Below are positions 3,084 through 49,428 of a stretch of DNA of 64,000 nucleotides, one piece after another. The first letter of the stretch is position 1, and each line of letters opens with the position of its first letter. Source of the stretch: a virus (lineage: Duplodnaviria > Heunggongvirae > Uroviricota > Caudoviricetes); IMG/VR virus record IMGVR_UViG_3300037466_003153, positions 25,253-89,252 of that record; one strand, written 5' to 3'. The position numbers were made by a program, and so were the translations under genes. The notes beneath the pieces are model-generated. The model was not told where the DNA came from. It ran no database searches and saw nothing but the letters and a program-made list of their open reading frames with translations.

Positions 3084-3086
3084 GTA

Positions 3087-3266: not shown

Positions 3267-3274
3267 TTAGTTTA

Positions 3275-3865: not shown

Positions 3866-4207
3866 TTATTTACCCATTAATGCTTTAATTCTTTCGAATC
3901 GTGCTGATTGTTGTTTGGCCCTGTTGGAAAAATCTACAGCTCTACTTAAAGCTTGCTGTTTTCTAGCAACTTCAATTAGTGGAGAACCTGCATCTACGGC
4001 TTGATTAACTGCTTTATTTGCCAAAGCTTCTTTGGCGAGATTATAACCTTCACCTACTTCAGATACTGGACTAATAGTACCAGCTACAGCTCCGACAAGA
4101 TTATGATAATAATCATTTTCTTCTGGTGTTGGTTCGGGATTGAGATCCCCTTGTTTGTTACGTTGTAATTGGAGTGCTGCTAATTTTTTAAGCTCATCAT
4201 AATCCAT
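3866..4207 (-). CDS. Hypothetical late protein (113 aa)
   Basis: Tightly packed between the portal and the structural genes. Confidence 0.4.
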   Translation of the reverse strand: MDYDELKKLAALQLQRNKQGDLNPEPTPEENDYYHNLVGAVAGTISPVSEVGEGYNLAKEALANKAVNQAVDAGSPLIEVARKQQALSRAVDFSNRAKQQSARFERIKALMGK

Positions 4208-4209
4208 AA

Positions 4210-11938: not shown

Positions 11939-12080
11939 TTTTCTTGATGTTTACGCTAATAGTGTATATAATTATTAGGGTAAGGGATACAATTTTGGGT
12001 TAGTTCAACAGCAGAATGTGGAGACTTCAGACCTCTAAGATAAGTGTGCAATTCACTTACCCAAAACTTTTTAGGATATT

Positions 12081-16063: not shown

Positions 16064-16607
16064 ATTAACAAAGGGTTATGTTGCCCTAGTAGATGATGAA
16101 GATTATGAAAAACTTTCAGAAAGAAGCTGGCATGTCTCATTCTCTAATAAAAATAAACGACATAAACAACATGTTTACGCTCAAGTTACTATTAAAAAAG
16201 ATGGAATAAAAAAGACTTATAAGATACATCGTATAATTTTAGGAGTAAATGATCCAAAAATTGATGTAGATCATATTAATGGTAATACATTAGATAATAG
16301 ACGTTGTAATCTCAGACTTTGTAGTAGATCCGATAACAATAAAAATTCAATTAAAAGAAGTAAACTTGATAGTAAATCTCCTGTTTCTAAGTATAAAGGT
16401 GTCAGATATTCTTTTATTTACAAACCTAATGGTAAAAAACATATAAGATCTAAACCTTGGATGGCAGCAGGATCTGAAAATGGTAAACCTGTGCATTTGG
16501 GTTATTTTAAAACAGAACTTGAAGCAGCTAAAGCTTATAATGAATTTGCATTGAAATATTATGGCGAATTTGCTAAAATTAATGAAATAGAGGATAAAAA
16601 TGAGTAA
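16044..16607 (+). CDS. HNH homing endonuclease with C-terminal AP2 DNA-binding domain
   Basis: HNH core (DVDHINGNTLDNRRCNLR) plus an AP2-like segment (YKGVRY...GKPVHLGYFKTELEAAKAYNEFALKYYG). Confidence 0.7.
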   Translation: MVMKEIKLTKGYVALVDDEDYEKLSERSWHVSFSNKNKRHKQHVYAQVTIKKDGIKKTYKIHRIILGVNDPKIDVDHINGNTLDNRRCNLRLCSRSDNNKNSIKRSKLDSKSPVSKYKGVRYSFIYKPNGKKHIRSKPWMAAGSENGKPVHLGYFKTELEAAKAYNEFALKYYGEFAKINEIEDKNE

Positions 16608-35341: not shown

Positions 35342-35399
35342 CTTGTTTTATTGTTGTGCTATTTTTCGTTTATCTTACATACAAAATGTAATCAAGTTT

Positions 35400-35460
35400 G
35401 GTGGGTGGGGCCTTGAAACGGTACGTCCTGTAAGCCTCGGAAGTATCGGCCCACCGAAAC
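35400..35460 (+). ncRNA. GC-rich structured 5' leader element upstream of the ribonucleotide reductase gene
   Basis: GGTGGGTGGGGCC...GGCCCACC closing stem with internal stems. It is a GC island in otherwise AT-rich intergenic DNA. Confidence 0.3.
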
Positions 35461-35486
35461 AATTCTCTCTTTCTAATAAGGAACCT

Positions 35487-37112
35487 ATGACAGAGTTTGA
35501 TGTTTTTTCTAGTAAATTCGCACAAGATATTTTCCTTCAAAAGTATTCTATGGATAAACAAGAAACTTGGGAAGATACTTGTCGTCGTGTTGTTAGTAGT
35601 GTATGTGGTCAACTTCTCCCTAAAGAAGAACAAGAAGAAATCTTTAGAGCCATGTATGAAAGAAAGTTTATTCCTGGTGGGAGATATTTATATTCAGCAG
35701 GACGTGCTTTACATCAAGTAAATAATTGTTTCCTATTTAGAGCTGGAGATTCTCGTGAAGAATGGGCAGACGCCATGCAAAAGGCAACATCTGCTTTAAT
35801 GACGGGTGGAGGAATCGGCTTTGATTACTCTACACTCCGAGAAGAAGGCGCTCTTATTAAACGTACTGGCGGAACTTCTACCGGTCCTATTGCACTAATG
35901 AATATGGTTAACGAGGCTGGACGTTACATTATGCAAGGTGGTGCAAGACGTTCTGCTATTTGGGCAGGATTAAATTGGTCACATTCTGATATTGAAAAGT
36001 TCTTAAAGCTCAAAGATTGGCCAGAAGAAATTAAGAAGATCAAAGAAAAAGATTTTACTTTTCCAGTTCCAATGGAATTAACTAACATCTCTGTTATCTA
36101 TGATACAGAATTCTTTATTGCTATTGAAGATCCTAAACATCCTAAACACAAACTCGCTAAAGATATTTGGATGAAAAATTGTAGACAAGCTTTCAGTACT
36201 GCAGAACCTGGAATGTCTATGAATTTTCGCAAGGATAATGAATCACTTCGTAATGCTTGTACTGAAGTCGTTAGTGAAGACGATAGCGATAAATGTAACC
36301 TTGGTACAATTTGGATCAATCGTATTAAGGATAAAGATGAACTTGCACATATCACTCGTTTGTCTACTAAGTTTCTAATTTGTGGCGGCATTTATTCGGA
36401 CGTTCCAAATGATAAGATTAAGCAAGTTGGCGACAAGAATAACCGAATTGGATTAGGTTTGGGTGGTATGCATGATTGGCTTATGCAGCGCGGTGAAGAT
36501 TATGAAGTTACTCCTGAGCTTCATAAGTGGTTAAGTATTTACGAACAAGAATCAGATGGTGCTGCTTTCATGTATGCAAGAACGCTCGGTGTGTCTGTTC
36601 CTAAAGGCGTTAGAGCAATTGCACCAACTGGAACCATCGGTATTATTGCCGAAACTACAACAGGAATTGAACCGCTATTCTGTAAAGCTTACAAACGTCG
36701 TTATCTTAAAGGCGGTAAAGATTGGGTATATCAATATGTTGTTGATGGATCTGTTAAGAGACTTCTTGAACAAGGTGTTCCGCTTGAAAAGATCAAAGAT
36801 TCTTACGATCTAAGTTTTAAACAACGCGTTAAGTTTCAAGCGGACGTTCAAAATTACGTTGATATGGCTATATCTAGTACTTGTAATTTGCCAGCTTGGG
36901 GTAGTGAAACTAATAACGAAGAAACATTAAAATCGAATGCAAAAATCCTATTAAAGTATGCGAAACGTCTTAGAGGATTTACTTGTTATCCTGATGGTTC
37001 TCGCGGAGGTCAACCTCTAACCAGAGTTGATATTAAAGAAGCTTTGGATAATGAAGGAACTGTTTTTGAAGAAGTTGAAAATAAATGTGTTAACGGTGTC
37101 TGTGGATTATAA
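35487..37112 (+). CDS. Ribonucleotide reductase, probably class II-like monomeric (541 aa)
   Basis: Motifs VNNCFLF (active-site Asn-x-Cys) and GGGIGFDYSTLREEG...GGTSTGPIALMNM (RNR glycine-rich segments). C-terminal Cys pair CVNGVC. Start chosen at the ATG at 35487, downstream of the structured leader. Confidence 0.55.
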   Translation: MTEFDVFSSKFAQDIFLQKYSMDKQETWEDTCRRVVSSVCGQLLPKEEQEEIFRAMYERKFIPGGRYLYSAGRALHQVNNCFLFRAGDSREEWADAMQKATSALMTGGGIGFDYSTLREEGALIKRTGGTSTGPIALMNMVNEAGRYIMQGGARRSAIWAGLNWSHSDIEKFLKLKDWPEEIKKIKEKDFTFPVPMELTNISVIYDTEFFIAIEDPKHPKHKLAKDIWMKNCRQAFSTAEPGMSMNFRKDNESLRNACTEVVSEDDSDKCNLGTIWINRIKDKDELAHITRLSTKFLICGGIYSDVPNDKIKQVGDKNNRIGLGLGGMHDWLMQRGEDYEVTPELHKWLSIYEQESDGAAFMYARTLGVSVPKGVRAIAPTGTIGIIAETTTGIEPLFCKAYKRRYLKGGKDWVYQYVVDGSVKRLLEQGVPLEKIKDSYDLSFKQRVKFQADVQNYVDMAISSTCNLPAWGSETNNEETLKSNAKILLKYAKRLRGFTCYPDGSRGGQPLTRVDIKEALDNEGTVFEEVENKCVNGVCGL

Positions 37113-37612
37113 TGATAGATCGTAAGGATGCTATCTCTGTAGAAAGAAAATTTTACCCTGGTACTGGATATGTAAATACTTACATTTTTAAGTGTAAAGG
37201 GTTTGAATGTGATGAATTATGTCGTGTTCAAACCCAATATTTAAAGAAATCTAAAGGTCTTTGTAAAAGATGTGTTCAAAAAGGACTACCATTTGAAGCC
37301 AAATATAATGAGTTAAAAAAGAGCTGTAAGAGAAGAAATATAGATCTTACTATTAGTTATGAAGATTTTTTAGAATATACAAAAATAGTTAACTGTCACT
37401 ATTGTTTAGATAAGATTGTTTGGTATCCTTTTACAAGAGATACTAAAGATCATTCTGTTGTTAGTAGGAGCTATAATTTAGATAGAAAAAACAATGATTT
37501 AGGCTATACAAAAGAAAATTGTGTTGTTTGCTGTTGGAAATGTAACTCAGCTAAGAGTGCTAGATATACCTATGATGAATGGTATGGAATGACCGAGTAT
37601 TTTAGGTGTTGA
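37112..37612 (+). CDS. HNH endonuclease (homing-endonuclease-like, 166 aa)
   Basis: CHYC...NLDRKNNDLGY...CWKCN motif, as in the 42799 gene. Confidence 0.5.
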   Translation: MIDRKDAISVERKFYPGTGYVNTYIFKCKGFECDELCRVQTQYLKKSKGLCKRCVQKGLPFEAKYNELKKSCKRRNIDLTISYEDFLEYTKIVNCHYCLDKIVWYPFTRDTKDHSVVSRSYNLDRKNNDLGYTKENCVVCCWKCNSAKSARYTYDEWYGMTEYFRC

Positions 37613-37655
37613 AGTTAGTAATCTGCTATTATATAATAACCTAATAGGAGAGTTT

Positions 37656-37862
37656 ATGGACGAAAAGCGTAAAGAAGAAATTGAAAAAATTAAAGCCGAA
37701 GTCAAAGACTTACTTAATCAAATTGTCATTAAAACTACCGGTGTTAATGGCTCAGAAAGCGTTTATCTTACTTGTGTAAGAGCATATTCTAAACGTGTTC
37801 TCGATCGTGAATATGAAGCTGAACACAACGAAGATCAATATTACAACTCCAACTGTTACTGA
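37656..37862 (+). CDS. Small protein, tandem paralog A (C-terminal HNEDQYYNSNCY)
   Basis: GGAG Shine-Dalgarno. The C-terminal motif is shared with the next gene. Confidence 0.4.
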   Translation: MDEKRKEEIEKIKAEVKDLLNQIVIKTTGVNGSESVYLTCVRAYSKRVLDREYEAEHNEDQYYNSNCY

Positions 37863-37870
37863 GGTTTATT

Positions 37871-38188
37871 GTGGCTAAGAATAAAACCGATTATTCAGAA
37901 TTGAAAAGTGAAGTATTGGATACTCTTAATCAGCTTATGATTAAGCTTAAAGACATTGGCGAACCTATGACTTGCGAAGACGAGTATCGTGGTTCTCGTG
38001 TTTTGACAGAAGGTACCGAAGAAGTTTATGATGAAGAAGCCGACGACTATGTTGAAAAACCAGTCAAAGGTTTTGATGCAGAAAAACAATTTCTTGCTTG
38101 TGCAAAACAAATGTTAAAACGTATTGTTGCAGACGATCTTTGGACCGTTGCTCATAATGAAGATCAATATTACACTTCTAATTGTTAA
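37871..38188 (+). CDS. Small protein, tandem paralog B (C-terminal HNEDQYYTSNC)
   Basis: GTG start. Same C-terminal motif and similar N-terminal coiled coil. Confidence 0.4.
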   Translation: MAKNKTDYSELKSEVLDTLNQLMIKLKDIGEPMTCEDEYRGSRVLTEGTEEVYDEEADDYVEKPVKGFDAEKQFLACAKQMLKRIVADDLWTVAHNEDQYYTSNC

Positions 38189-38206
38189 TTTCTATATAGA
38201 GTAATG

Positions 38207-38278
38207 AAAATGTGTGGCAGCCTATGCTAGGAAGGGCGTATCCGTATTTGTTAGCAGACTTACGGGGCCACATTTTTT
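38207..38278 (+). terminator. Long compound hairpin with T-run (terminator-like or small structured RNA)
   Basis: AAAATGTGTGGC...GCCACATTTTTT closing stem around two internal hairpins. Confidence 0.3.
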
Positions 38279-38288
38279 AAGGATGATT

Positions 38289-38546
38289 ATGACCAGAGAA
38301 GAATCTAAAAAACTTAAACAGGAAATCATTGAAAAATTTAACGAAATTGCAGTTCTTCTACGCGATATTGAAGAAGAATATGAAGAACTTGACGTATATA
38401 ATGAAGAAACCAAAGAATGGGTATATGGTCCTAATCCAAATTGGACACCAGAAAATAAATTTCTTCTAACTTCCAAAAATGTTGTAGAGTCTCTTGCTTC
38501 AGGTGAAATCGACGACGCTTTGGATTACTACACCTCAAGTTTTTAA
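38289..38546 (+). CDS. Acidic hypothetical protein (85 aa)
   Basis: AAGGA Shine-Dalgarno. Confidence 0.4.
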   Translation: MTREESKKLKQEIIEKFNEIAVLLRDIEEEYEELDVYNEETKEWVYGPNPNWTPENKFLLTSKNVVESLASGEIDDALDYYTSSF

Positions 38547-38547
38547 T

Positions 38548-38973
38548 ATGTACGGTATAAAAAGAGGAACTATTGAAACTGAAGAAGCTAACGGAATCTG
38601 GAATGTAACAGGTGATTCCTTTTATGCTTATTTCATTCAATACACAGAACATCCTATTCACGATCCAGTTAAAGAAGTTCTTGAGCAAGAAAGTATGTTT
38701 GTAGACAAAACTAAAATGTCCACTAATCATATTAATAGAAGTGTTTATACTGTATATGAAGTTGATCAGGTAGAAACTGTTTGTCATTACAAGAATTTTT
38801 TACATGCGATTTGGAGATTAATCACTAGACAACCTTTACATACTACAAATGTTAGTAGGGTTAACCATAGCTATTTAGAGGGATATTACGTTAACAAAGA
38901 ACTATCTCCAAAGTTTGTTCAGCGTCATGTTACAGTTTGCTTTCCAATTGTTGTTTATAAAGAGGAAGGATAA
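38548..38973 (+). CDS. Hypothetical protein (141 aa)
   Basis: ORF. Confidence 0.4.
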   Translation: MYGIKRGTIETEEANGIWNVTGDSFYAYFIQYTEHPIHDPVKEVLEQESMFVDKTKMSTNHINRSVYTVYEVDQVETVCHYKNFLHAIWRLITRQPLHTTNVSRVNHSYLEGYYVNKELSPKFVQRHVTVCFPIVVYKEEG

Positions 38974-38975
38974 GT

Positions 38976-39956
38976 ATGATTTTAATTGGTAGCCAAGCTT
39001 TAAATCATTATGTTCCACTCAATCGTAAAATGCACGATTGGGATTTCATTATGACTAGGGAAGAACTAGTAGACTTTCATTGTGAGTATTATCAATACAA
39101 AGTTAAAGAAACTGATTACTCAATTCTTTACGATATTAATGGGACCATTGTAGAAATTAGAAATCCCGATCATCTAGATCCTACAGATGAAGTTCTTCTT
39201 TCTAATCCTGTTAATTACGTAAAGAAAATGAATACACCATTCGGTGAAACATACGTTGTTGAATTAGCTTATCTTTATGATATTAAACGTTCAACCGCTG
39301 AATGTATTCCTGAACATAAACATCAATACGATTTGAAATTGATGCAGGATACTTTTAAATTTACTAATGAATTTGAATCTCAGTTTTATAAGAAACGTTT
39401 AGCTGAAACTCAGCAACGTACTAAGAAAACCAATAAGGATATGTATGACTTCTTTCACAAGTACCATATTCCTGAGTACGTTGTTCACGATAGGCTTCAC
39501 GAAATGATTGCTGACTTATTGGATCTTCCTATGCCAACTTATGTCCGTACAATCACTGGAGCTGTTACCACTGTTCCCGAATTATATCATAAGCTAACTC
39601 ATGAGCAGAAGGTAAGTCTTATGGTGGAAGAAAGCATTGTCCTTTCTCTTGAACGTTGGTTTATTCCGCAAATGATCGAAAACGGAATCAACTATCGTGT
39701 GATTGACAAGTTTTATAACAACAATGAAGCCATGCCTACTTATAAGATTCTAAAGCATGTGAATCTTGTAGGTCTTAAAGGTGAAGCCGACTATGTTGTT
39801 CAGTTTGGTAAAGACAACTTCTTTGAAATTGAGAAGGAATGGATCAAAGCTAAGGAAGTCATTAAAGCTAAGGGAGGCTTCCCTGACTGGTTCTTTCAAG
39901 AGCTTTTCGATTTGAGAAAACGTTACAAGAATAACGAGAACATTGCTACCGTATGA
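38976..39956 (+). CDS. Hypothetical protein (326 aa); N-terminus has a GS...DWD pattern faintly reminiscent of a nucleotidyltransferase fold
   Basis: GGAAGG Shine-Dalgarno. MILIGSQALNHYVPLNRKMHDWDFI. Confidence 0.45.
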   Translation: MILIGSQALNHYVPLNRKMHDWDFIMTREELVDFHCEYYQYKVKETDYSILYDINGTIVEIRNPDHLDPTDEVLLSNPVNYVKKMNTPFGETYVVELAYLYDIKRSTAECIPEHKHQYDLKLMQDTFKFTNEFESQFYKKRLAETQQRTKKTNKDMYDFFHKYHIPEYVVHDRLHEMIADLLDLPMPTYVRTITGAVTTVPELYHKLTHEQKVSLMVEESIVLSLERWFIPQMIENGINYRVIDKFYNNNEAMPTYKILKHVNLVGLKGEADYVVQFGKDNFFEIEKEWIKAKEVIKAKGGFPDWFFQELFDLRKRYKNNENIATV

Positions 39957-40120
39957 GTAGAACCAAAAAGGGTAAGAAACCTCCCGGTTGGGACTATTGG
40001 GGTAAGCGTCCAATAGGTTGGGGAGATCATAGCACCAAGGGTAAACGTACTGGAATTAAACGTGAACGAGCTAAAGCAAAGCAATCTCTAATTAAGGAAA
40101 AGAAGAATGAAACGAAGTAA
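39953..40120 (+). CDS. Small basic protein (55 aa)
   Basis: Lys/Arg-rich. Confidence 0.3.
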   Translation: MSRTKKGKKPPGWDYWGKRPIGWGDHSTKGKRTGIKRERAKAKQSLIKEKKNETK

Positions 40121-40304
40121 AATTGTAAATCTCATTGCTGATTTTCTTTATGAGCTTAATCTTGATGCCGATGAAGCTAAAGAAAAGGCAGATAAACTAC
40201 TTACTTCTATCGAAGATTCAGGTATGGACCCACCTCAATACATGGATAAAGGATGTAGGTGTATGACTTGCTATAGCTATGGATGGGAACCTGAAAATGA
40301 TTAA
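40107..40304 (+). CDS. Hypothetical protein (65 aa)
   Basis: ORF. Confidence 0.4.
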   Translation: MKRSKIVNLIADFLYELNLDADEAKEKADKLLTSIEDSGMDPPQYMDKGCRCMTCYSYGWEPEND

Positions 40305-40743
40305 ATATATCAAAGGCGACTTGTTTGCTACCGATGCTGACATTATCGCTCATGGTGTGAATTGTCAGGGTAAATTCGAATCAGGTATTGCTGGTATCAT
40401 CAAACAAAAATACCCTAAAGCAAGACAATACTATCTTGATAAATACGAAGATGAAGGTTGGAATTTAGGCGATGTCCAATATGTGAAGATTGGTAGTGGT
40501 GATAATTTTATTGCCAACTGTGCCACTCAAGACACATATCTTCCTAGAGGTATATGTCACGTTGACTATAATGCTATTAGACAATGTATGGAAAATGTTA
40601 AACGTGTAGCAAAGTTACATGGGTACACAGTTGCTATACCTAAAATTGGTGCAGGACTTGCTGGTGGTGATTGGAATATTATCGAAAAAATTATTAATAA
40701 AGTATTTGATGATTATCCTATTATCTGTTATTATATAGACTGA
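40279..40743 (+). CDS. Macro-domain protein (ADP-ribose-binding / ADP-ribosyl hydrolase family, 154 aa)
   Basis: GDLFATDADIIAHGVNCQGKFESGIAGII and VAIPKIGAGLAGGDW match the macro-domain signature (GD..xxxDAIVNAAN..GGGV..AI / IAFP.I.tG..G). Confidence 0.65.
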   Translation: MDGNLKMIKYIKGDLFATDADIIAHGVNCQGKFESGIAGIIKQKYPKARQYYLDKYEDEGWNLGDVQYVKIGSGDNFIANCATQDTYLPRGICHVDYNAIRQCMENVKRVAKLHGYTVAIPKIGAGLAGGDWNIIEKIINKVFDDYPIICYYID

Positions 40744-40785
40744 TGTTACAAGTTAGGCAATTGTCACATTCTACGGAGTTAATTT

Positions 40786-41223
40786 ATGAAAGTAGTGATT
40801 AACAAGTGTTATGGCGGCTTTTCAATCTCCCCGGAGGCGGCGCTTTGGTTATATGAACGCGGCTTCAAAGCTGAAGGATTTGTAACGCCAATCGAAAACT
40901 ACTGGAGTGACTTAACGGCTGAGCGGGGCAAGACCTTAGGGTATAAAGCTCAACTGGCACGGTGGCAGGAATATCGTAGCGGAAAACATGCCGGAAGTAG
41001 TTTCATTACCGTTTTTGCTCCCGACGAAAAAAGTGTCCTTAGCACTCGCCCGGATTGTCGCCATGACCCGCTCTTGATTGAGTGTATCGAAACCCTTGGC
41101 GACAAAGCTAACGGGAGGTGCGCAGAGCTAAAGATTATCGAGATTCCAGACGGCGTTGATTACACCATCGATGAGTATGACGGCATGGAGCATATCGCCG
41201 AAAAACATCGGACTTGGGGATGA
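40786..41223 (+). CDS. Hypothetical protein (145 aa), first gene of the GC-rich island
   Basis: GGAG Shine-Dalgarno. GC content is clearly above the phage background. Confidence 0.5.
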   Translation: MKVVINKCYGGFSISPEAALWLYERGFKAEGFVTPIENYWSDLTAERGKTLGYKAQLARWQEYRSGKHAGSSFITVFAPDEKSVLSTRPDCRHDPLLIECIETLGDKANGRCAELKIIEIPDGVDYTIDEYDGMEHIAEKHRTWG

Positions 41224-41258
41224 GACACTTTCACAAAGAGTAACGAGGTATTGAAATC

Positions 41259-41438
41259 ATGGGCCAATCTTTAGACGAGTTTATCGCAAAATACGGCGCT
41301 GTTCAGGTGCTCAAAAAGAACCTGAAAGCCAATATAGACGTGTATTGCGACGGCTGGACCGAAGAACAGAAGGAACAGCTTCTCCGTATGAACATGATTA
41401 TGGTCCGCCAATGCCTAAATGACTTTGGAGCGGAATGA
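41259..41438 (+). CDS. Hypothetical small protein (59 aa), GC-rich island
   Basis: AGGTATTGAAATCATG context. Just under the 60-aa ORF-track cutoff. Confidence 0.35.
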   Translation: MGQSLDEFIAKYGAVQVLKKNLKANIDVYCDGWTEEQKEQLLRMNMIMVRQCLNDFGAE

Positions 41439-41439
41439 G

Positions 41440-41636
41440 ACAAATTAAATTGTAACCTCTGGTGATTCCAGTCCGTTCCAACGGTCAATTAGGGTCACTG
41501 TCGATGAGAGGTCGGCCCAGAGGAAACAAGCCTGCGGGTGCCCTCTACCAACGTATGGGTGGAGTCCGAAAGAGGGTAAATGGAAAGCTCGTACTCCCCA
41601 GCCCGCAGGATTCATTGAGCGCGAATTGAATGGAGT
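41440..41636 (+). ncRNA. Candidate structured noncoding RNA / cis-regulatory RNA (~190 nt, GC-rich, multi-stem)
   Basis: Perfect nested stems: CCTCTGG 41456-62 with CCAGAGG 41517-23; CCTGCGGG 41531-38 with CCCGCAGG 41602-09; CCCTCT 41541-46 with AGAGGG 41571-76; GGAGT 41561-65 with ACTCC 41594-98. Ends in the GGAG Shine-Dalgarno of the next gene. Confidence 0.35.
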
Positions 41637-41984
41637 TTGTTTATGAAAATAGATTGTGGCGATAACTCATGTCACTTTGCAGAAGATAAAAGCGGGATGC
41701 GGACAAATGGTGGCTGTAGGTGCTTGAGTAATGCGGGTTTTAGTCGCTCAGCCATAGCCAGCGCCTACGAGATGCTGCCCGAGATTCTTCGCTTACGAGA
41801 AGAGCGCGACGCACTCCGCGCTGAGCGTGACGACGCCCGCGAAAACTCGAATAGGTTTCAAATGCAGGTTATGCAACTCCGCGCTGCCGGGGACGCTATG
41901 TATAAGGTTTGCGTTGGCGATTCCAGCGAGAGCTTTCTCAAGGTCGCACGCGAGTGGAAAAAAGCCGTTGGAAAACAAGGCTAA
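41637..41984 (+). CDS. Cys-cluster + coiled-coil protein (115 aa), GC-rich island
   Basis: CGDNSCHF...GGCRC then LREERDALRAERDDAREN. Same architecture as 19095..19475. Confidence 0.45.
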   Translation: MFMKIDCGDNSCHFAEDKSGMRTNGGCRCLSNAGFSRSAIASAYEMLPEILRLREERDALRAERDDARENSNRFQMQVMQLRAAGDAMYKVCVGDSSESFLKVAREWKKAVGKQG

Positions 41985-42007
41985 GTAACAGTTCAAAGAA
42001 AGGTAAC

Positions 42008-42808
42008 ATGATTAAATTAAGAGCAAATGGCATTGAAGTTCCGTTTGAAGTATCGAAGTTTCCAGATGGCACCAGTCAACTTTGGAAAGCAGGTAGGTTA
42101 GACTTATTTAGCCATTTTCGTATCAATTTTATTTGGGAGAATGATGAAAGAGAAGTTTTTCATCTTCTAATGCTTATTGATCTAATAAGATCATATAATC
42201 CAGATGCTTTTATTTATCTTGCTATGCCATATTTACCTTATGCGCGTCAAGATAAGCCAGTTGTAAGTGAATTCACATTTGCATTAAATACGTTTGCTAA
42301 CTTGTTGAATTCTAAAAACATCGATCTTATTGAGAGTTTTGACGTTCATAGTAATCAAGCTCATAAACTAATCAAAAACTTTCATTCAATTAGTCCACAA
42401 AATTTTCATAATTGGGTATACTCAAAATTTAAACCAGATTTATTTTTTTATCCCGATCGCGGAGCTGCATATCGTTACGCTGCTGCTATTAATGAAATTA
42501 TGTTATTTGGTAACAAGGTTAGAAACCAAAGCACTGGTGAAATTACAGATTATGAAATTGCCAATCTAAACCACTTTGATATTAAGGATAAAAAGATTCT
42601 TATTATTGATGATATTTGTGATGGTGGTGCTACTTTCATTACCGCTGCTAAAAAGCTAAAAGAACATGGAGCTGGTGAAATTGGCTTGTGTGTATCACAT
42701 GGTTTGTTTTCTAAAGGATTTGATGAGATGAAAGCTGCTGGTATTAGTCAATTCTTCACAACTAATAGTTTGTTGAAAAATTCCGATGGGTACAAGGTTT
42801 GGGAATGA
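42008..42808 (+). CDS. Ribose-phosphate pyrophosphokinase (Prs)-like protein; candidate ADPR-pyrophosphate synthetase (Adps) of an NAD+ reconstitution pathway
   Basis: PRPP-binding loop KILIIDDICDGGATFITAAKKL, a Prs-like N-terminal half and an AGGTAACATG start context. Confidence 0.65.
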   Translation: MIKLRANGIEVPFEVSKFPDGTSQLWKAGRLDLFSHFRINFIWENDEREVFHLLMLIDLIRSYNPDAFIYLAMPYLPYARQDKPVVSEFTFALNTFANLLNSKNIDLIESFDVHSNQAHKLIKNFHSISPQNFHNWVYSKFKPDLFFYPDRGAAYRYAAAINEIMLFGNKVRNQSTGEITDYEIANLNHFDIKDKKILIIDDICDGGATFITAAKKLKEHGAGEIGLCVSHGLFSKGFDEMKAAGISQFFTTNSLLKNSDGYKVWE

Positions 42809-43362
42809 GACAACGTATTTACATGGAACCTGGTTTGAAGTTTGGAAGATGGACTTCCATTCAATTTTCTCATAAGGATTCAAGTAATATTTATTTTTGG
42901 TTGTTTAAATGTGACTGTGGTAATGAAAAAGTTATTAGAGCAATGTCTGTAACTTCAGGAAGATCTAAAAGTTGCGGTTGTTATGATAGAGAATTAAAAT
43001 CTAAAAGACAAATTAAACAACCGGGATATGCAGCTTGTAGAAAAGTATATAATACATACAAACATCATGCCGAACGTAGGAATTTGTGTTTTGAATTGAC
43101 GTTTGAAGAGTTTAAGAAATTAGGAGAAACTAATTGTTATATTTGTGGTATTGAACCTAAACAATTAGTTGCTATTGATAAATCAGGAATAACAACAAAT
43201 TGGTCATATAATGGTATTGATAGAGAAGATAATACCAAAGGTTATTCCTTGAATAATTGTAGAGCATGTTGTAAAATATGTAATGTAGCCAAAAATGACT
43301 TGACTGAGGAAGAATTCAAAAACTGGTTGAATCGTATTGTAACCTTTAATAAGGAAATGTAA
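42799..43362 (+). CDS. HNH endonuclease (homing-endonuclease-like) inserted between the Prs-like and NAMPT-like genes
   Basis: CYICG...NGIDREDNTKGY...CCKICN. Confidence 0.5.
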   Translation: MGMRQRIYMEPGLKFGRWTSIQFSHKDSSNIYFWLFKCDCGNEKVIRAMSVTSGRSKSCGCYDRELKSKRQIKQPGYAACRKVYNTYKHHAERRNLCFELTFEEFKKLGETNCYICGIEPKQLVAIDKSGITTNWSYNGIDREDNTKGYSLNNCRACCKICNVAKNDLTEEEFKNWLNRIVTFNKEM

Positions 43363-43363
43363 A

Positions 43364-44815
43364 ATGAACAAAAATCTTCTTTTATGTACTGATATTTACA
43401 AGGTCGGCCATATGCTTCAATATAAGCCAGGGACCACAAAAGTATATTCATATCTTACAACTCGTTCTGACAAGAAGATCCCTTACACTATTTTCTTTGG
43501 ACTTCAATATTATCTTAAGGAATATCTTTCTAGACCAATCACAAAAGAAGATGCTGATGAATTTTGTGAATATTACAAAATGATTCTAGGTGTAGAACCA
43601 AATGAAGAAACCAAAGTTAAAGTTTATGGTTTAGTTGAATTGGGTTATTTACCCTTAAAAATTAAGGCTGTACCGGAAGGTACCATTATGCCTGTAAAAA
43701 ATGTATTGCTAACTATGACCAATACACATCCCCAATTCGCATGGGTTGTTGGCTTTTTCGAATCTCTTATTCTAAAGCTTTGGAATACTACTACTGTTGC
43801 AAGCTATAGCCACAAGCTTAGACAACTCTGTGTAGAATATGCAGATGCGACTTGTGATAACAATGATCATGTCAACTTTCAAGTTCATGACTTTGGCTAT
43901 CGTGGTGTTAGTTCGGAAGAAACTGCAGCTCTATCTGGTGCGGCTCATCTTCTTAATTTTTTAGGAACTGACACTGTTCCTGCTGTAGCATTTCATAAGG
44001 AGTATTATGCTGGCGAATTTCCTATCGGTCTTAGCGTTCCTGCTTCTGAACATTCAGTTATGTGCAGTTTTGGTAGGGACAACGAACTCGACGCATTTAG
44101 AAATATGCTTAGCTTGTATCCAAGTGGTATTGTCAGTATTGTATCTGATACTTACAATATCTGGAACGTTTTGACTAATTTTGCTTCACAATTGAAGGAT
44201 GAAATTTTAGCTCGCGACGGTAAAGTTGTTTTCAGACCAGATAGTGGAGATCCTGAACAAATTATCAACGGTTCAAATGAATGTAATTGTAAAAATGATA
44301 TTTGCGGTCCAATGTGTGAACCGGATTGTAAAGGAGCATTACAACTTCTTTGGGAACAGTTTGGAGGAACAATTAACTCGAAAGGTTATAAAGTTCTAAA
44401 TCCTAAAGTTGGTCTAATTTACGGCGATGGCATGTATTATGATCGTTTCAAACGCATTCTAAAAACTATGGAAGAGAATGGATTTGCGAGTAGCAATTTA
44501 GTTATCGGCGTTGGTGGATTGCTCCTTCAGGATCATTCAAGAGATGACCAAGCATATGCTATTAAAGCTACATATTCAGAAGTGAATGGTGTTCCTTTTG
44601 AGCTTATGAAAGATCCTATTACAGATAGCAAAAAGAAGTCACATAAAGGATTACTCGCTCTATTTCAAAGTGAATATGATGGTAGTTATCTAACTTATGA
44701 TCAATGTACACCCGAAATGGAAGAAATGGGTTTGCTTAAAACTGTATTCGAAGATGGTAAAATTTTAGTTAATACCAATCTTCAAGAAATTCGTAAGAGA
44801 GTATTGGAAGGTTAA
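43364..44815 (+). CDS. nadV: Nicotinamide phosphoribosyltransferase family protein (NadV/NAMPT-like; candidate Namat)
   Basis: Signature DFGYRGVSS plus a full-length ~480-aa NAMPT fold pattern. Confidence 0.85.
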   Translation: MNKNLLLCTDIYKVGHMLQYKPGTTKVYSYLTTRSDKKIPYTIFFGLQYYLKEYLSRPITKEDADEFCEYYKMILGVEPNEETKVKVYGLVELGYLPLKIKAVPEGTIMPVKNVLLTMTNTHPQFAWVVGFFESLILKLWNTTTVASYSHKLRQLCVEYADATCDNNDHVNFQVHDFGYRGVSSEETAALSGAAHLLNFLGTDTVPAVAFHKEYYAGEFPIGLSVPASEHSVMCSFGRDNELDAFRNMLSLYPSGIVSIVSDTYNIWNVLTNFASQLKDEILARDGKVVFRPDSGDPEQIINGSNECNCKNDICGPMCEPDCKGALQLLWEQFGGTINSKGYKVLNPKVGLIYGDGMYYDRFKRILKTMEENGFASSNLVIGVGGLLLQDHSRDDQAYAIKATYSEVNGVPFELMKDPITDSKKKSHKGLLALFQSEYDGSYLTYDQCTPEMEEMGLLKTVFEDGKILVNTNLQEIRKRVLEG

Positions 44816-45024
44816 TGCCTAAAATTGAACTGACTTGCAAGTATTGTGGGAAAGAATGGACGCAGGTTGTCATGAATCAGGACGACTTGGAAAATCTAAA
44901 ATGTATCCTATGTGGAGATAGTAGTGTTTCCGCTAGACAAATAGATGAAACCAAGCGTGACGTTTTTGGATATGACAACCAAGACCCAAGAGAAGATGCT
45001 TATTTTCCTAGAAGAAAATACTAG
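44815..45024 (+). CDS. Small zinc-ribbon protein (69 aa)
   Basis: CKYCG...CILCG. Confidence 0.45.
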   Translation: MPKIELTCKYCGKEWTQVVMNQDDLENLKCILCGDSSVSARQIDETKRDVFGYDNQDPREDAYFPRRKY

Positions 45025-45071
45025 AAGTTTAAACTAATAATTGTTATAATATAGGAATATTAGGAGATAAC

Positions 45072-45296
45072 ATGTTTCGATGTGATTATTGTGATCAAGT
45101 TTCAGCACCAAGAGAACAAATGAATAAAAGAGTTCATCAAACTCGCGAGAAGATTTATTTTGAAATGACTCGCGAAACAAATGATGAAGGAAATGAAGTT
45201 ATTGTTCAAGGTAAGGAACTTGGTAGAGGTTTAGAAGTAGTTAGAGAAGTATCTCTTTGTAAGATTTGTGCAAAGGTCGAAGATCAATATGCGTAA
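45072..45296 (+). CDS. Small zinc-binding protein (74 aa)
   Basis: CDYCDQ...CKICA. Confidence 0.45.
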   Translation: MFRCDYCDQVSAPREQMNKRVHQTREKIYFEMTRETNDEGNEVIVQGKELGRGLEVVREVSLCKICAKVEDQYA

Positions 45297-45495
45297 TTAT
45301 CGTGTCACATTTTATAAGCTCGAAAAAGAAAATGACGAAAAGGGTAAATCCTTCGTTAAGGATAGTAAGTATTTAGGATCGGTTGTTGTAGACGATAGCG
45401 GAACTGGAACCAATCTTACTCTTACAGCTAAGGCTTTCCGCCAAGCTAGCGAAATCTGCCAAATTGCAGACAAGGTTCGCATTGAGCAACTATGA
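45289..45495 (+). CDS. Hypothetical protein (68 aa)
   Basis: ORF. Confidence 0.4.
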   Translation: MRNYRVTFYKLEKENDEKGKSFVKDSKYLGSVVVDDSGTGTNLTLTAKAFRQASEICQIADKVRIEQL

Positions 45496-45725
45496 AAGTC
45501 AAATTGGGTGATTACCGAGTACAGTATAACCCTATTAAACATGTCTTAGAGAAAGAAAATCCCAAAGATATTAACAAATTTATTACAACGTTTGCGGCGT
45601 GTTATCACGTTCCAATTATCGTAGTAGCTCATTACGTTTCTGAAATGATTGGCATGAAGCCTGAAATTCAGGAGCTTATTGATCGAATTACGAAGTTTTA
45701 CGGTTACACTGAAGTAACCGAATAA
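45492..45725 (+). CDS. Hypothetical protein (77 aa)
   Basis: ORF. Confidence 0.4.
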   Translation: MKVKLGDYRVQYNPIKHVLEKENPKDINKFITTFAACYHVPIIVVAHYVSEMIGMKPEIQELIDRITKFYGYTEVTE

Positions 45726-45783
45726 CAATGTCTAAAAGGACAAGGATTGTCCAATTAGGTAATAAACAAACAAGGAAAATAAA

Positions 45784-46098
45784 ATGGATCTATCAAGTCT
45801 ATTAGCAGTATTAGCACCTATTATTAGCGGTTTGGCTGGTCAATATGGTTTACTAGCACAAGTATTAATGTGGATTGGGATGCTTCGTCTCATTATGAAA
45901 CCGATCATGACCTGCATTCAGGCAGTTGTTGATGTTACACCTACAACTAAGGATAATGAAATTTTAAATGGTATTTTGAATTCAATTCCATACAAAGTAC
46001 TTTCATTTCTTTTCGATTTAGTCGCATCATTGAAACTTCCAAAAGCTGCAGTAGTAACTCCGGTAGCAACAGAAACTCAATCTCCTCCTTCTGTCTAA
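45784..46098 (+). CDS. Membrane protein (104 aa)
   Basis: Two transmembrane helices. Confidence 0.45.
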   Translation: MDLSSLLAVLAPIISGLAGQYGLLAQVLMWIGMLRLIMKPIMTCIQAVVDVTPTTKDNEILNGILNSIPYKVLSFLFDLVASLKLPKAAVVTPVATETQSPPSV

Positions 46099-46107
46099 CC
46101 TAATAAG

Positions 46108-46146
46108 GCGAGCATCTGTATTTTAGGTGCTCGCTTTTTTATTGAA
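46108..46146 (+). terminator. Rho-independent terminator (GCGAGCA...TGCTCGC + TTTTTT)
   Basis: A 7-bp GC-rich stem followed by a T6 run. Confidence 0.55.
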
Positions 46147-46176
46147 TTATTGTTAACAAAAGTTTATAATAAGAAT

Positions 46177-47289
46177 ATGTCAAATAAATTAAGCTTTTCT
46201 AAGATTTCATCATATAGCATTTGTGGTGAGCGTTATAGACTTCATTACATTGAAAAATTACGTGAAAAGTGGGCTAGAGCTTCACTTTTGTTTGGATCTG
46301 CTATTGACGAATCTCTAAACTCCCTTCTTGAGAATAGAGACTTGGATAAAGCCAAGCAAATCTTTCTCAAGACTTGGAACTTTCAATATGTCAATAACAA
46401 AATGACTGCATTGAAAAATAATCCAGATATTGTTTATGCTTCTGCAGACTTAGACCTTGATCTTATTGAACTTACAGAAGAAAATCGTAAATGGCTTAAG
46501 GAATTTGAAGATTTCAAAAGTCAGAACAAATGGGATTATATTAGCGAAGAAGATCGCTCAACATATAACTCTTTTTGTTGGGAAAGCATGAAAGCCAAAG
46601 GGCTTCTCATTCTCGAAAACTACTCAACAAAGGTACTACCTCAGTTTCTTAGTGTTACTGCAATTCAACATAAAACCGAACTCGTAAATGGTGATGGTGA
46701 TAGCGTTACTCAGGTTCTCGACTTTATCGCTACTCTTCACGATGGTAGTGTTGTTCTATTCGATAATAAAACAACCAGCAATTTGAGCTATTATCCAGAC
46801 GATGCTCCAGCTACTAGCCAGCAGCTTGTTTCCTACTATTACAATAATAAGCAAAAATTCGGTATCACGGCTGTAGGATTTGTTGCAATTCAGAAGCTTG
46901 TGATTAAGAATAAGACAAAGACATGTACTAAGTGTGGTTTTGATGGAACTGAAAGCAGAGCTAAAACCTGTGATCAAGAACATCCCGGTATGGTTGTCAA
47001 ACGTGGTAAAGAAGTTGAAGGAATGGTTCGTTGTAATGGTGAATGGGATGTAAAGATGAATCCTGAAGTAGCTATTAAGCTAATAGTCAATCCTGTTCCA
47101 GATGCTTCTGTTGATTTGGTTCTTAGTGCATTCGATGAAGCCAATCATGGAATTAAGACTGGTAATTTCTATAAGAATTTAACGGTTTGTAAGAATATTT
47201 ATGGAAGTCCTTGTACTTACTACAATTTGTGTTGGAAGGGTAAGGATGAAGAACTAGTTAAACTTGAAGATAATAAAAAATCTTCTTGA
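46177..47289 (+). CDS. PD-(D/E)XK nuclease (RecB/Cas4-like exonuclease) with C-terminal Cys cluster
   Basis: VLDFIATLHDGSVVLFDNKTT (D...D-x-K) core plus C-terminal cysteines. Sits upstream of the ERF annealase. Confidence 0.55.
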   Translation: MSNKLSFSKISSYSICGERYRLHYIEKLREKWARASLLFGSAIDESLNSLLENRDLDKAKQIFLKTWNFQYVNNKMTALKNNPDIVYASADLDLDLIELTEENRKWLKEFEDFKSQNKWDYISEEDRSTYNSFCWESMKAKGLLILENYSTKVLPQFLSVTAIQHKTELVNGDGDSVTQVLDFIATLHDGSVVLFDNKTTSNLSYYPDDAPATSQQLVSYYYNNKQKFGITAVGFVAIQKLVIKNKTKTCTKCGFDGTESRAKTCDQEHPGMVVKRGKEVEGMVRCNGEWDVKMNPEVAIKLIVNPVPDASVDLVLSAFDEANHGIKTGNFYKNLTVCKNIYGSPCTYYNLCWKGKDEELVKLEDNKKSS

Positions 47290-47323
47290 TGTTATTAGTT
47301 AGATAGTTTATTATTGAGGTTAT

Positions 47324-47677
47324 ATGGCTAGACCAACGACGATTAAAATGGGTGAAGGTGAAGTAGTTCTTCGTAACCTTCCTAAAGAAGAAGTTGAGAG
47401 AATTAAAGCTCTTCTAAATCCATCAATTGAAAATAGTCCAGAAGTTCAAAATGCTATTGAACAAGTAGTTGAGAAAATGGATGAAATTAATTACAATCTT
47501 CCACTAGACGAAACTGCTCTTGGATTTAGACAAAATAATAGTGGATCTTATGAGCTTGTTAGTGTAAAATACAATGTAGATTCAAAACAAGCTACAGTAG
47601 AGTCTGTTAAGAATTTAGGTAAAGATAAACAAGTTGCCCTTTACGATTTTAAAATCAAAATTGGCATCTTGGTTTAA
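47324..47677 (+). CDS. Hypothetical protein (117 aa)
   Basis: ORF. Confidence 0.4.
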   Translation: MARPTTIKMGEGEVVLRNLPKEEVERIKALLNPSIENSPEVQNAIEQVVEKMDEINYNLPLDETALGFRQNNSGSYELVSVKYNVDSKQATVESVKNLGKDKQVALYDFKIKIGILV

Positions 47678-47686
47678 GGAGAAAAA

Positions 47687-48094
47687 ATGAAGCTTACCAA
47701 GGAACAGATCATTACAGCTCTTAGAAACGAACCTCTTTCTGCTGGCAGGTTTATTCGTGCAGATGGAAAACCACTCAGTAGCTGCGCAGTTTGTGCGGTT
47801 GGTGCAGTAATGAGAGACGTATTAAATCGTAACATTACCGATGAAGATGATTTTAACGATATTTGTTATATTGTAACTAAAGATAGATTCATCGATGATG
47901 ATGTTTCGCAACTTCTTGCGGAAGAAAATTATCTTGGTGCTTTAAGTAATTATTTTGAGAAGATTACAGACGATGAAAATGATCGTTTTCTTAAAAAAGA
48001 AGTAACACCAGAAATTCGTCAAGATGTTATTAATTTTGTAGAAAACAATTTTCCAAATGAATTTGAAGTTGATATGAAAGAAGGAGTCATTTAA
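47687..48094 (+). CDS. Hypothetical protein (135 aa)
   Basis: GGAG Shine-Dalgarno. Confidence 0.45.
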   Translation: MKLTKEQIITALRNEPLSAGRFIRADGKPLSSCAVCAVGAVMRDVLNRNITDEDDFNDICYIVTKDRFIDDDVSQLLAEENYLGALSNYFEKITDDENDRFLKKEVTPEIRQDVINFVENNFPNEFEVDMKEGVI

Positions 48095-48669
48095 TGAAAC
48101 GTAGTGATAGTGTTACTAAAATTGTTCCAGCACTTCTCAAAGCTCAAAAGCTTATGGGTGGTGCAACTAAAGGTGCTGCTAATCCATATTTCAAGAGTAA
48201 ATATGCCGATTATGGTGCTGTTCTTGAAGCATGTAAGGATTTGCTTAACGATAACGGAATTGCAATTCTTCAACCACATACATTCCATGATGGTAAGAAT
48301 TTCGTAGAAACAACTCTTATTCATGAATCTGGTGAATATCTCACTTCAGAAACAGAAGTTGTATGTTCAAAGCAAAATGATCCACAGGCGTTAGGATCTG
48401 CTATTACTTATGCACGTCGCTATGGTTTGCAATCTCTACTCGCAATGCCAGCCGAAGATGACGACGGTGAAAAAGCAATGGGACGCACTGCAGCTCCTAA
48501 GCAAGAAGCTCCAAAGGCAGCTGCACCAGCAGCTAAGCCAGCGCAAGCTCCTGCAGCAAAAGTAGCAACAACTCCAGCAACAAAGTCTAGCTTTAAAGCA
48601 GCTACACCTGCAGCTCCAGCAACTACCACTGCTAAACCAGCTGGCGCTAATGATTTGAATTGGGATTAA
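48094..48669 (+). CDS. erf: ERF-family single-strand annealing protein with Ala/Pro-rich C-terminal tail
   Basis: ALLKAQKLM...ANPYFKSKYADYGAVLEA matches the ERF signature (NPxFKSKYAdL). Confidence 0.6.
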   Translation: MKRSDSVTKIVPALLKAQKLMGGATKGAANPYFKSKYADYGAVLEACKDLLNDNGIAILQPHTFHDGKNFVETTLIHESGEYLTSETEVVCSKQNDPQALGSAITYARRYGLQSLLAMPAEDDDGEKAMGRTAAPKQEAPKAAAPAAKPAQAPAAKVATTPATKSSFKAATPAAPATTTAKPAGANDLNWD

Positions 48670-48676
48670 ATAAAAT

Positions 48677-49063
48677 ATGATGAAACCAGAAACAACCACA
48701 CCTGCTAGCGAACCAACGGGAAGCGTAACTGTAGCTAATCCTGAAGTAGAACAAACTCCAGAAGTACAAGCTGCAATGTTCTTGCACTCAGCATTGCCAA
48801 TGTTCCGTAATCAGCTTGATAAGCTAACAGGAACTCAAGCTAAGCGTGTTCTCTCTGCTCTAATGGAAGCTCCACTAGAAAAGGAAACACCAGGATTTAC
48901 AACTAGGGAAGCAGACGATCTATTCGCACTAGGTCTTATGATTTCCAATGCAAAGTTTATCTTATTCAACGTAGCTCTTAAAGATAAAGAAATTACGGAT
49001 AAGGTAGAAGAAGAAGCTGCACAAGCTGGCGCGGAAGCAGCTGCTAACACTCAGGGAGAATAA
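48677..49063 (+). CDS. Hypothetical protein (128 aa)
   Basis: ORF. Possibly a recombination accessory or SSB-like protein, unverified. Confidence 0.4.
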   Translation: MMKPETTTPASEPTGSVTVANPEVEQTPEVQAAMFLHSALPMFRNQLDKLTGTQAKRVLSALMEAPLEKETPGFTTREADDLFALGLMISNAKFILFNVALKDKEITDKVEEEAAQAGAEAAANTQGE

Positions 49064-49065
49064 TA

Positions 49066-49344
49066 ATGATTAAGAAATTTAAAGTAGGAACTGTACAATC
49101 TAAGAAAGACCGTTCAGGTGTCACCATTGCTGTAGGTAATGCTAACGCTAAGAATGAAAAGTATCGTACTTCAGTAGAAATTACTGTTAAGGATGCAAAC
49201 GGTAATGTTCTAGCTCAAGTTGAAAACGGCTATCTTGTTGTTCAAGATCCTCGCAAGCGTGATGGCATCACCGAAGAACAACTCGCTAAGATTCCTGATT
49301 GGATCAAGAGCGAAGTTTTCGTTGTAGTTGATGACGGACAATAA
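49066..49344 (+). CDS. Hypothetical protein (92 aa)
   Basis: ORF. Confidence 0.4.
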   Translation: MIKKFKVGTVQSKKDRSGVTIAVGNANAKNEKYRTSVEITVKDANGNVLAQVENGYLVVQDPRKRDGITEEQLAKIPDWIKSEVFVVVDDGQ

Positions 49345-49354
49345 AAAGTAATCC

Positions 49355-49428
49355 CTCAGTACGTTTGACCGTAAATCGTTCCTAAGAATTCTTCCTCCTT
49401 CTTAGGTAAAAAACGGTCACTTTTTTTG
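49355..49428 (+). terminator. Compound terminator (nested hairpins TGACCGT...ACGGTCA enclosing CCTAAGAA...TTCTTAGG, then T7)
   Basis: Perfect 7-bp and 8-bp stems and CTTTTTTT. The primase-helicase Shine-Dalgarno follows. Confidence 0.55.

Follow-up and report, generated by a model that had tools for sequence, protein, structure and literature searches.

A PHROG_335 macrodomain gene near a NARP1-like NAD+ reconstitution module in an uncultivated phage: a candidate ADP-ribose feeder

The phage NAD+ reconstitution pathway NARP1 consists of two enzymes, Adps and Namat, and there is precedent for NARP1 operons carrying further enzymes that feed it, namely Adpp and RyDEP. The RES-domain defence proteins termed aRES split NAD+ into nicotinamide and ADP-ribose (ADPR)-1''-phosphate (ADPR-1''P), which NARP1 cannot use; the macrodomain protein Adpp (Vibrio phage Gary KNV71_gp137) converts ADPR-1''P to ADPR, giving an extended pathway called NARP1-AP, and beating aRES takes all three genes, with the Adpp substitutions H24A and N27A causing loss of function (Osterman et al., bioRxiv 10.64898/2026.01.28.702374). 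In the same survey a macro gene was found within two genes of the operon in 15% of NARP1 phages (bioRxiv 10.64898/2026.01.28.702374). A second phage macrodomain comes from the HIDEN-SEQ study, where tk.4, alone among the T4 genes, was required on DarTG2 hosts; its knockout sensitises T4, the gene was renamed AdfM, and removal of ADP-ribose from DNA by Tk.4 was inferred from the genetics (bioRxiv 10.1101/2025.11.20.689424). Macrodomain accessories of NARP1 and an anti-DarT2 macrodomain factor of the same family are therefore already described (2025-2026 preprints). Here we analyse a macrodomain gene of an uncultivated phage, carried on a window of 64,000 nucleotides (positions 25,253 to 89,252 of IMG/VR record IMGVR_UViG_3300037466_003153; all coordinates below are those of the window). 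We put a probability of roughly 0.45 on its product being an Adpp-like feeder in an extended NARP1 pathway of the NARP1-AP type, which frees ADPR from ADP-ribose substituted at the 1'' position. What is new is the sub-clade of the macrodomain protein, the interrupted and apparently secondarily assembled arrangement of its locus, and a variant Namat-like partner. The three genes concerned are as follows.

40297..40743, + strand: macrodomain protein coding sequence, 148 amino acids (aa) plus stop codon, PHROG_335 (Tk.4/Adpp family), with a Gln-type active site
42008..42808, + strand: Adps-like (PRPS-like) gene, 266 aa, PHROG_619 (E=2e-61), predicted first NARP1 enzyme, ADPR + ATP to ADPR pyrophosphate (ADPR-PP)
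43364..44815, + strand: NAMPT-family (Namat-like) gene, 483 aa, Pfam NAPRTase and NAMPT_N, PHROG_448 (E=7e-174), putative second NARP1 enzyme

A preliminary description, made from the sequence alone, had noted a macro-domain signature here, and profile and structure searches confirm that the gene encodes a genuine macrodomain. Pfam PF01661 (Macro) matches with E=3.5e-9 and 37.1 bits (gathering score 22) over profile positions 2-117 of 118; PHROG_335 is the best PHROG match, at full length (E=1.1e-43), and 724 homologues are found at E<=1e-5. The AlphaFold2 model (mean predicted local distance difference test score 88.9, predicted template modelling score 0.86) has the three-layer alpha/beta/alpha macro fold, and Foldseek places it at template modelling (TM) scores of 0.79-0.88 to solved macrodomains: 0.88 to BT1257 (2FG1) and 0.82-0.85 to those of DarG, TARG1, SCO6735 and Poa1p. 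This fold search does not separate Poa1p-, DarG-, TARG1- or SCO6735-like functions, all of which fall at TM 0.79-0.88. Residues D8, H19, N22, G28-G30, Q78 and G118-W126 are invariant or nearly so across the family alignment, and binding of ADP-ribose is predicted from the conserved D8, the G28-S-G30 loop and the G118-G124 loop.

The family is the one to which both described phage enzymes belong. PHROG_335 is likewise the best PHROG match of Gary Adpp (1e-49), T4 Tk.4 (1e-65), a FelixO1-like 'phosphatase' (2e-113) and further NARP1-linked macrodomains, and the motif set D8, H19, N22, G-x-G loop, Q78 and G118-x-G-L-A-G-G-D-W126 is common to the window protein and all of these. Like Adpp, the window protein is a stand-alone PHROG_335 macrodomain of ~150 aa with a Gln-type site. 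Its GxGLAGGDW loop is identical to that of Gary, and the BLASTP alignment (28% identity, 50 bits, E=5e-13) equates its H19 and N22, both invariant in its family, with H24 and N27 of Gary Adpp; its gene is also on the same strand and in the same neighbourhood as an Adps/Namat-like pair. With T4 Tk.4/AdfM (34% identity, 64 bits) it shares the PHROG, the size, the H/N/Q motif set and a location among the early/middle accessory genes of a lytic phage; unlike the window gene, which stands beside NAD-rebuilding genes, tk.4 lies between vs and tk in a phage that has no NARP1. Identity is 37% to the NARP1-linked macrodomain of Acinetobacter phage phiAbaA1 and 41-43% to the Tk.4 orthologues of Acinetobacter T4-like phages, the best cultured-phage matches. 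Tk.4 (of T4 and JS98) and Gary Adpp are 35-40% identical, a closer match than either makes with the window protein, so homology cannot choose between the two functions.

The NAD module that had been described beside the macro gene, a Prs-like/NAMPT-like pair, was found just downstream on the same strand. Its first gene is, by its sequence features, a genuine Adps. It scores below the cut-off of the PRPS model TIGR01251 (104.6 vs 113), nests in the tree among Adps homologues that are partnered by canonical Namat, and lies at the same distance from E. coli Prs as canonical Adps do. It also lacks the C-terminal alpha11-alpha12 module of PRPS, the loss of which is a defining trait of Adps (PMC13586617), and keeps the catalytic Lys (K170, equivalent to Gary K192). 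The NAMPT-like protein keeps the catalytic His (H230, equivalent to Gary H243), and every member of its clade is paired with an adjacent Adps-like gene; the closest of them (L092) has a full adps-macro-namat cassette. The module is thus likely to be a NARP1 variant that uses ADPR-PP.

At the level of the family, macro genes and NARP1 are linked. We fetched loci from IMG/VR by alignment-based searches, 84 centred on relatives of the macrodomain protein and 80 on relatives of the NAMPT-like protein, and searched their open reading frames (ORFs) by profiles. Adps was present in 74 of the 80 Namat-centred loci. A PHROG_335-type macro gene lay within 10 kb in 19 of the 80, always on the same strand and within 1.6 kb in ~10; from the other side, 21 of the 84 macro-centred loci had Namat within 10 kb, and a NARP1 gene was within 2 kb in 12. 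A macro gene occurs anywhere in the genome in ~4-5% of phage records (2,225 and 2,705 of 50,697), which, with a genome of ~100 kb assumed, gives a rough chance baseline of ~1% per 20-kb neighbourhood; family members stand beside NARP1 ~24 times more often than this rough estimate. Three gene orders were seen: adps-macro-namat, macro-adps-namat and adps-namat-macro. The second of these, the order of the window, recurs in L025, L026, L031 and L003, whose macrodomains are 41-48% identical to that of the window. NARP1-adjacent macrodomains are dispersed over the family tree (polyphyletic), and therefore the association arose or was rearranged many times; so many separate origins or rearrangements argue for a link in function, for the family as a whole. 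It is because of this linkage, and of the same-strand position 1.3 kb upstream of Adps, that we rate the feeder role highest.

Two further arrangements of the family may be mentioned here. In Escherichia phage heid (L088, Felixounavirus) NARP1 occupies 1801-4509 and the macro gene 11995-12780. The macrodomain of such FelixO1-like genomes is a 261-aa PHROG_335 protein with an extra C-terminal domain, and its gene is separated from NARP1 by ~7.5 kb that hold rIIA/rIIB, lysis genes and PNK; these genomes escape a search limited to a distance of two genes. PHROG_335-type macro genes also adjoin Nampt-type genes, which are marked by a GMGGxLLQ motif (L015, L024, L060, L064, L069/L070, L083/L085); any Prs partner that these have is a true PRPS of full length. 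Members of the macro family may thus also accompany NAD salvage modules based on phosphoribosyl pyrophosphate (PRPP).

The proposed role can be written as a short series of reactions. The enzyme would bind ADP-ribose substituted at the 1'' carbon of the distal ribose, cleave the substituent and free ADPR. In the case modelled on Adpp, (i) a host RES-type defence would split NAD+ into nicotinamide and ADPR-1''-phosphate, useless to NARP1; (ii) the macrodomain would strip the phosphate to yield ADPR; (iii) Adps, encoded 1.3 kb downstream and presumably co-transcribed, would pyrophosphorylate ADPR to ADPR-PP; and (iv) the NAMPT-like enzyme would join ADPR-PP and nicotinamide to give NAD+. That the macrodomain might feed ADPR into reconstitution had been suggested before; the suggestion matches the experiments on Gary Adpp, while the closest relatives of the window gene are mostly not linked to NARP1.

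The earlier wording 'immediately upstream' of the NAD module, in contrast, needs correction: 1,264 bp separate the macro stop codon (40743) from the Adps-like start (42008), and a foreign-looking insert of 1.26 kb with three small ORFs intervenes. A further gene lies between the two NAD genes:

40786..41990, + strand: GC-rich intervening segment, ~50% GC vs ~34% for the genome, with three small ORFs, function not known
40786..41223, + strand: small ORF, 145 aa, PHROG_16527 (unknown function)
41259..41438, + strand: small ORF, 59 aa
41643..41984, + strand: small ORF, 113 aa
42799..43362, + strand: HNH homing-endonuclease-like gene between Adps and the Namat-like gene, PHROG_374, PHROG_1035 and PHROG_3322 (HNH endonuclease/endonuclease VII), E=1e-15 to 1e-19

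The macro, insert, Adps-like, HNH and NAMPT-like genes are all on the + strand, and the HNH gene overlaps the end of Adps. The GC-rich segment is probably a later insertion that stands outside the enzyme pathway, and it could be a moron or anti-defence cargo. Homologues of the 145-aa ORF are sporadic and occur in unrelated phages; the 113-aa ORF has no match among cultured phages, and a 35-aa stretch of it is 74% identical to a sequence near the macro and Nampt pair of L024. Two of the insert ORFs have a similar 28-nt translation-start context, and a possible fourth (41462..41629) is doubtful. The small ORFs gave no hits in PADLOC, Pfam or NCBIfam, and the flanks of the insert show neither a target-site duplication nor terminal inverted repeats. 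The interval between macro and Adps holds no Rfam match and no terminator-like site, its promoter-like matches are at background level, and the 200-nt gap within the insert forms no significantly stable RNA structure.

Several observations weigh against the feeder role, and they concern the protein, its partner and its locus. (i) The window protein is only 28% identical to Adpp and belongs to another sub-clade; its nearer relatives are Tk.4-type proteins, encoded by T4-like phages with no NARP1 in the vicinity. A comparison of NARP1-adjacent with other macrodomains for specificity-determining positions gave a maximum column difference of 0.58 (permutation 95th percentile, 0.54); the highest-ranking columns are variable and rich in gaps and make no usable signature. 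(ii) In the NAMPT-like protein the selectivity-clamp helix (residues 382-394) reads GVGGLLLQDHSRD and lacks the Namat signature GS[F/Y][T/S]Y[Q/N]xxTRD, i.e. GS-aromatic-T/S-aromatic-Q/N-aromatic-x-TRD (PMC12774641), a difference from the Adpp locus; its eight closest relatives (L092-L099) carry GVGGLLLQDHSRD too. In a neighbour-joining tree this group branches as a clade of its own, the sister of canonical Namat, and its helix is similar to the motif seen in Nampt-type genes without an Adps partner. With the clamp signature absent, use of ADPR-PP by the module is not certain. (iii) The layout of the window, macro-[1.26-kb insert]-adps-[HNH]-namat, with the macro gene outside the operon, differs from the tight adps-adpp-namat order of the Adpp locus, and with three small ORFs between, the gene falls outside the range of two genes from Adps/Namat within which Osterman et al. 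counted macro genes. (iv) Among nine contexts of relatives with at least 54% identity, NARP1 lies within 10 kb only in L014; the other macro genes, among them those of L009-L013, adjoin RNR and RNA-repair genes, and in three of the close relatives (L174, L176, L178) the macro gene is within a few kb of a conserved RNR-RlaP-PNKP-RNA ligase block. (v) In two 84-kb IMG/VR phages (L002 and L020), NARP1 lies upstream, on the other side of a reductase gene, and not downstream of the macro gene as in the window.

The last of these points deserves a closer look. The reductases of L002 and L020 are 74-75% identical to that of the window, and the three genomes share a backbone of reductase, macro, PD(D/E)XK nuclease and primase/helicase (35343-49426 in the window). 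The NARP1 genes of L002 and L020 are of another lineage, with a Namat only 40-41% identical to the window's. Their arrangement implies that the macro-NARP1 adjacency of the window stems from a rearrangement. In L041 the macro gene directly follows the reductase, and NARP1 is absent within 10 kb. The macro gene thus looks resident in this phage group and the NARP1 module mobile; the HNH endonuclease gene that splits the two NAD genes is consistent with such mobility. The nearest relatives of Adps are not those of the NAMPT-like gene, a pattern compatible with exchange of the NAD module in association with an endonuclease.

The clamp motif had also raised a reading of the module as Prs plus Nampt, working through PRPP and nicotinamide mononucleotide. 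This was made less likely, because the Prs-like protein nests within Adps, is C-terminally truncated, and does not group with the true PRPS proteins that accompany Nampt-type genes. The clade to which the NAMPT-like protein belongs is of interest for its choice of substrate, ADPR-PP or PRPP.

A resident macro gene is also what one would expect if the protein acted as AdfM does and nothing more, removing ADP-ribose from phage DNA thymidines that a host DarT2 toxin has modified, with its place beside NAD genes a matter of counter-defence genes clustering; this is a serious possibility, though one we hold more tentatively than the feeder role. The macro gene stays in the backbone wherever NARP1 sits, its closest relatives mostly have no NARP1 within 10 kb, and neither do its best cultured-phage matches, the Acinetobacter T4-like Tk.4 proteins; T4 Tk.4 itself, at 34% identity in the same PHROG, is required on DarTG2 hosts (bioRxiv 10.1101/2025.11.20.689424). 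The suggestion of the preliminary description that ADP-ribosyl modifications might be the target gains plausibility from this relative. A purely DNA-directed role nevertheless leaves unexplained the ~24-fold same-strand linkage to NARP1, including Adps-macro-Namat cassettes; the 35-40% identity between Tk.4 and Adpp means that homology to Tk.4 leaves phosphatase activity possible; and the evidence on Tk.4 is genetic, its action on DNA being deduced from that.

The best solved structures bear on the same alternative. These are the cellular proteins SCO6735 and BT1257 (PDB 5E3B, 2FG1; ALC1-like/TARG1-like), with profile matches of E=1e-19 to 3e-27 and TM 0.82-0.88. SCO6735 cleaves thymidine-linked ADP-ribose, using Gln85 in place of the Lys of TARG1/DarG, with Asn27 in support (PMC9411070), and these two residues correspond to Q78 and N22 of the window protein. 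Q78 thus stands at the position of TARG1 K84 and of the catalytic Lys of DarG (K80), and the window protein is therefore not of the lysine type found in DarG, TARG1 and the PhiKZ AdfM. Unlike SCO6735, a cellular and strongly basic protein with Lys34, Lys89, Lys94 and a longer mobile loop for DNA, it is near neutral (isoelectric point 6.3 and net charge -1, vs 9.9 and +7); G20 replaces Val25, and the approximate counterparts of Lys34 and Lys89 are S29 and L82. The want of a basic surface and of these Lys residues speaks against DNA as the substrate, but weakly, as JS98, a T4-like phage, has a Tk.4 that is itself acidic, and for that reason isoelectric point and net charge were dropped as a discriminator between DNA and small-molecule substrates.

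DarG-like proteins give a related comparison. PhiKZ gp104, the second protein named AdfM, is DarG2-like and strips DarT2 marks from DNA with a catalytic Lys78 (PMC13309987). The window protein shares with it and with DarG the macro fold (TM 0.83-0.85 to DarG macrodomains) and the N-terminal Asn, and differs in having Gln for the catalytic Lys (K80 in DarG, K78 in gp104). Among PADLOC models the macro part of DarG matches best (E=8e-19), a point in favour of the anti-DarT2 role. Membership in DarG itself was rejected: NCBIfam NF048014 scores 57 bits (cut-off 250), with an alignment limited to positions 1-139 of the 338 in the profile, and both the C-terminal DarT-binding domain and the catalytic Lys are missing. 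PADLOC found no DarT in the five neighbouring small ORFs scanned. A neighbour in Geobacillus virus E3 labelled 'toxin-antitoxin-like' is an anti-repressor family protein and irrelevant.

Yeast Poa1p, an ADPR-1''-phosphate phosphatase (PDB 6LFQ), catalyses the reaction proposed here for the window protein, and resembles it in fold (TM 0.85), in a full-length profile match (E=2e-17) and in His23, equivalent to H19. It differs in two of the three residues probed in PDB 6LFS/6LFT/6LFU (Ser30 is K26 and Phe152 is A122 in the window protein), in an insertion of ~20 residues, and in being a eukaryotic housekeeping enzyme of tRNA splicing. Since Poa1p handles ADPR-1''P from tRNA splicing, it also brings up the idea that the substrate is some other ADP-ribose conjugate, unlinked to NAD+ rebuilding: protein or RNA ADP-ribosylated by a transferase of a host defence or of the phage itself, O-acetyl-ADPR, or ADPR-1''P from RNA repair or splicing. 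The ALC1/TARG1 class is promiscuous, and TARG1 and SCO6735 also de-modify proteins (PMC9411070); public labels on homologues read 'O-acetyl-ADP-ribose deacetylase'; and the phage has RtcB, RNA ligase and RlaP, with the macro genes of the closest relatives near the RNR-RlaP-PNKP-RNA ligase block. We nonetheless consider this idea improbable. The RNA-repair genes of the window are 17-30 kb from the macro gene, Pfam showed no ADP-ribosyltransferase, Tpt1/KptA, Nudix or sirtuin among the larger window ORFs, the database names are automatic labels, and the linkage to NARP1 would be left unexplained.

Degradation or sequestration of the cyclic ADPR (cADPR) signals of Thoeris, which had also been proposed, found no support and is very unlikely. 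Macrodomains bind ADPR derivatives in general, and nothing more specific in its favour came out of the analysis. The NARP1-linked enzyme that does act on such signals is RyDEP, a RyR-domain glycosidase in NARP1 operons that converts cADPR to ADPR and hydrolyses 2'cADPR and 3'cADPR, and the known sequesterers are unrelated sponges (PMC13232231). In 2'cADPR and 3'cADPR the 1'' position is held in a ribose-ribose glycosidic bond, the cleavage of which by characterised family members is not reported in the cited literature, and the conserved catalytic residues of the window protein favour an enzyme over a sponge.

The feeder and anti-DarT2 roles are not mutually exclusive. By analogy with T4 Tk.4/AdfM, the window enzyme may also take ADP-ribose off thymidines that DarT2 has modified; removal of the 1'' phosphate and cleavage of the DarT2 thymine linkage would both release free ADPR, the substrate of Adps. 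If both reactions are true, one small gene blunts two unrelated NAD+-consuming defences and returns their ADP-ribose to the NAD+ pool. A broader version seems rather unlikely, if less so than the RNA-repair and protein substrates considered above: PHROG_335 members would cleave any 1'' substituent (the RES phosphate or the DarT2 thymine linkage), with the ADPR recycled to NAD+ where NARP1 is present, and in the window a resident macrodomain would have been joined by a mobile, HNH-associated NARP1 variant lacking the aromatic adenine clamp. If so, the locus is a snapshot of how extended NAD+ pathways assemble. The window gene, from an uncultivated phage, would be one more of the increasingly numerous enzymes that ready substrates for NAD+ reconstitution by phages. 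An annotation problem also comes to light: Adpp and AdfM are close relatives (35-40%, one PHROG), sequence homology alone cannot assign the function, and at present only genomic context can separate the two.

The start of the macro gene was set as follows. An ORF spans 40279..40743 on the + strand. Translation from the ATG at 40279 would yield 154 aa; the gene most probably starts at the ATG at 40297 (148 aa). All of the 41 closest homologues (55-75% identity) begin at the equivalent Met (MIK/MIx), an identical protein (P0001) on an 89-kb JGI contig is called at 148 aa, and the codon is preceded by a purine-rich GGGA ~10 nt upstream and overlaps the stop of the preceding small ORF by 8 nt; on these grounds we prefer it. 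The 154-aa form has an exact match in one Logan contig. The junction between macro and insert recurs in a separate Logan assembly (L001) at 100% identity. Two small ORFs further upstream, at 38976-39956, lies the gene of a 326-aa protein with DUF7277 and DUF7275 domains, function not known.

No near-identical DNA was found among the 50,697 phage records except a 33-nt match in a Prs gene, and the family-B DNA polymerase is ~27% identical to its nearest cultured-phage matches, from Salinibacter phages. A Pfam scan of 38 window ORFs (the larger ones, with the small ORFs covered only in part) showed no ADP-ribosyltransferase, Nudix, NMNAT, Tpt1/KptA or sirtuin. Besides the polymerase, the identified genes of the phage include primase-helicase, ThyX, ERF recombinase, RtcB, RNA ligase and RlaP. 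Other HNH endonuclease genes of the window are at 37112-37612 and 16044-16607. The RNA-repair genes are at 10832-11938, 15026-16063 and 57249-58460 and comprise an RNA ligase with a PHA02142 OB domain, RlaP and RtcB. Adjoining the RNA ligase gene, at 11994-12067, is a tRNA found by ARAGORN with anticodon TCA, labelled tRNA-SeC and possibly an opal suppressor.

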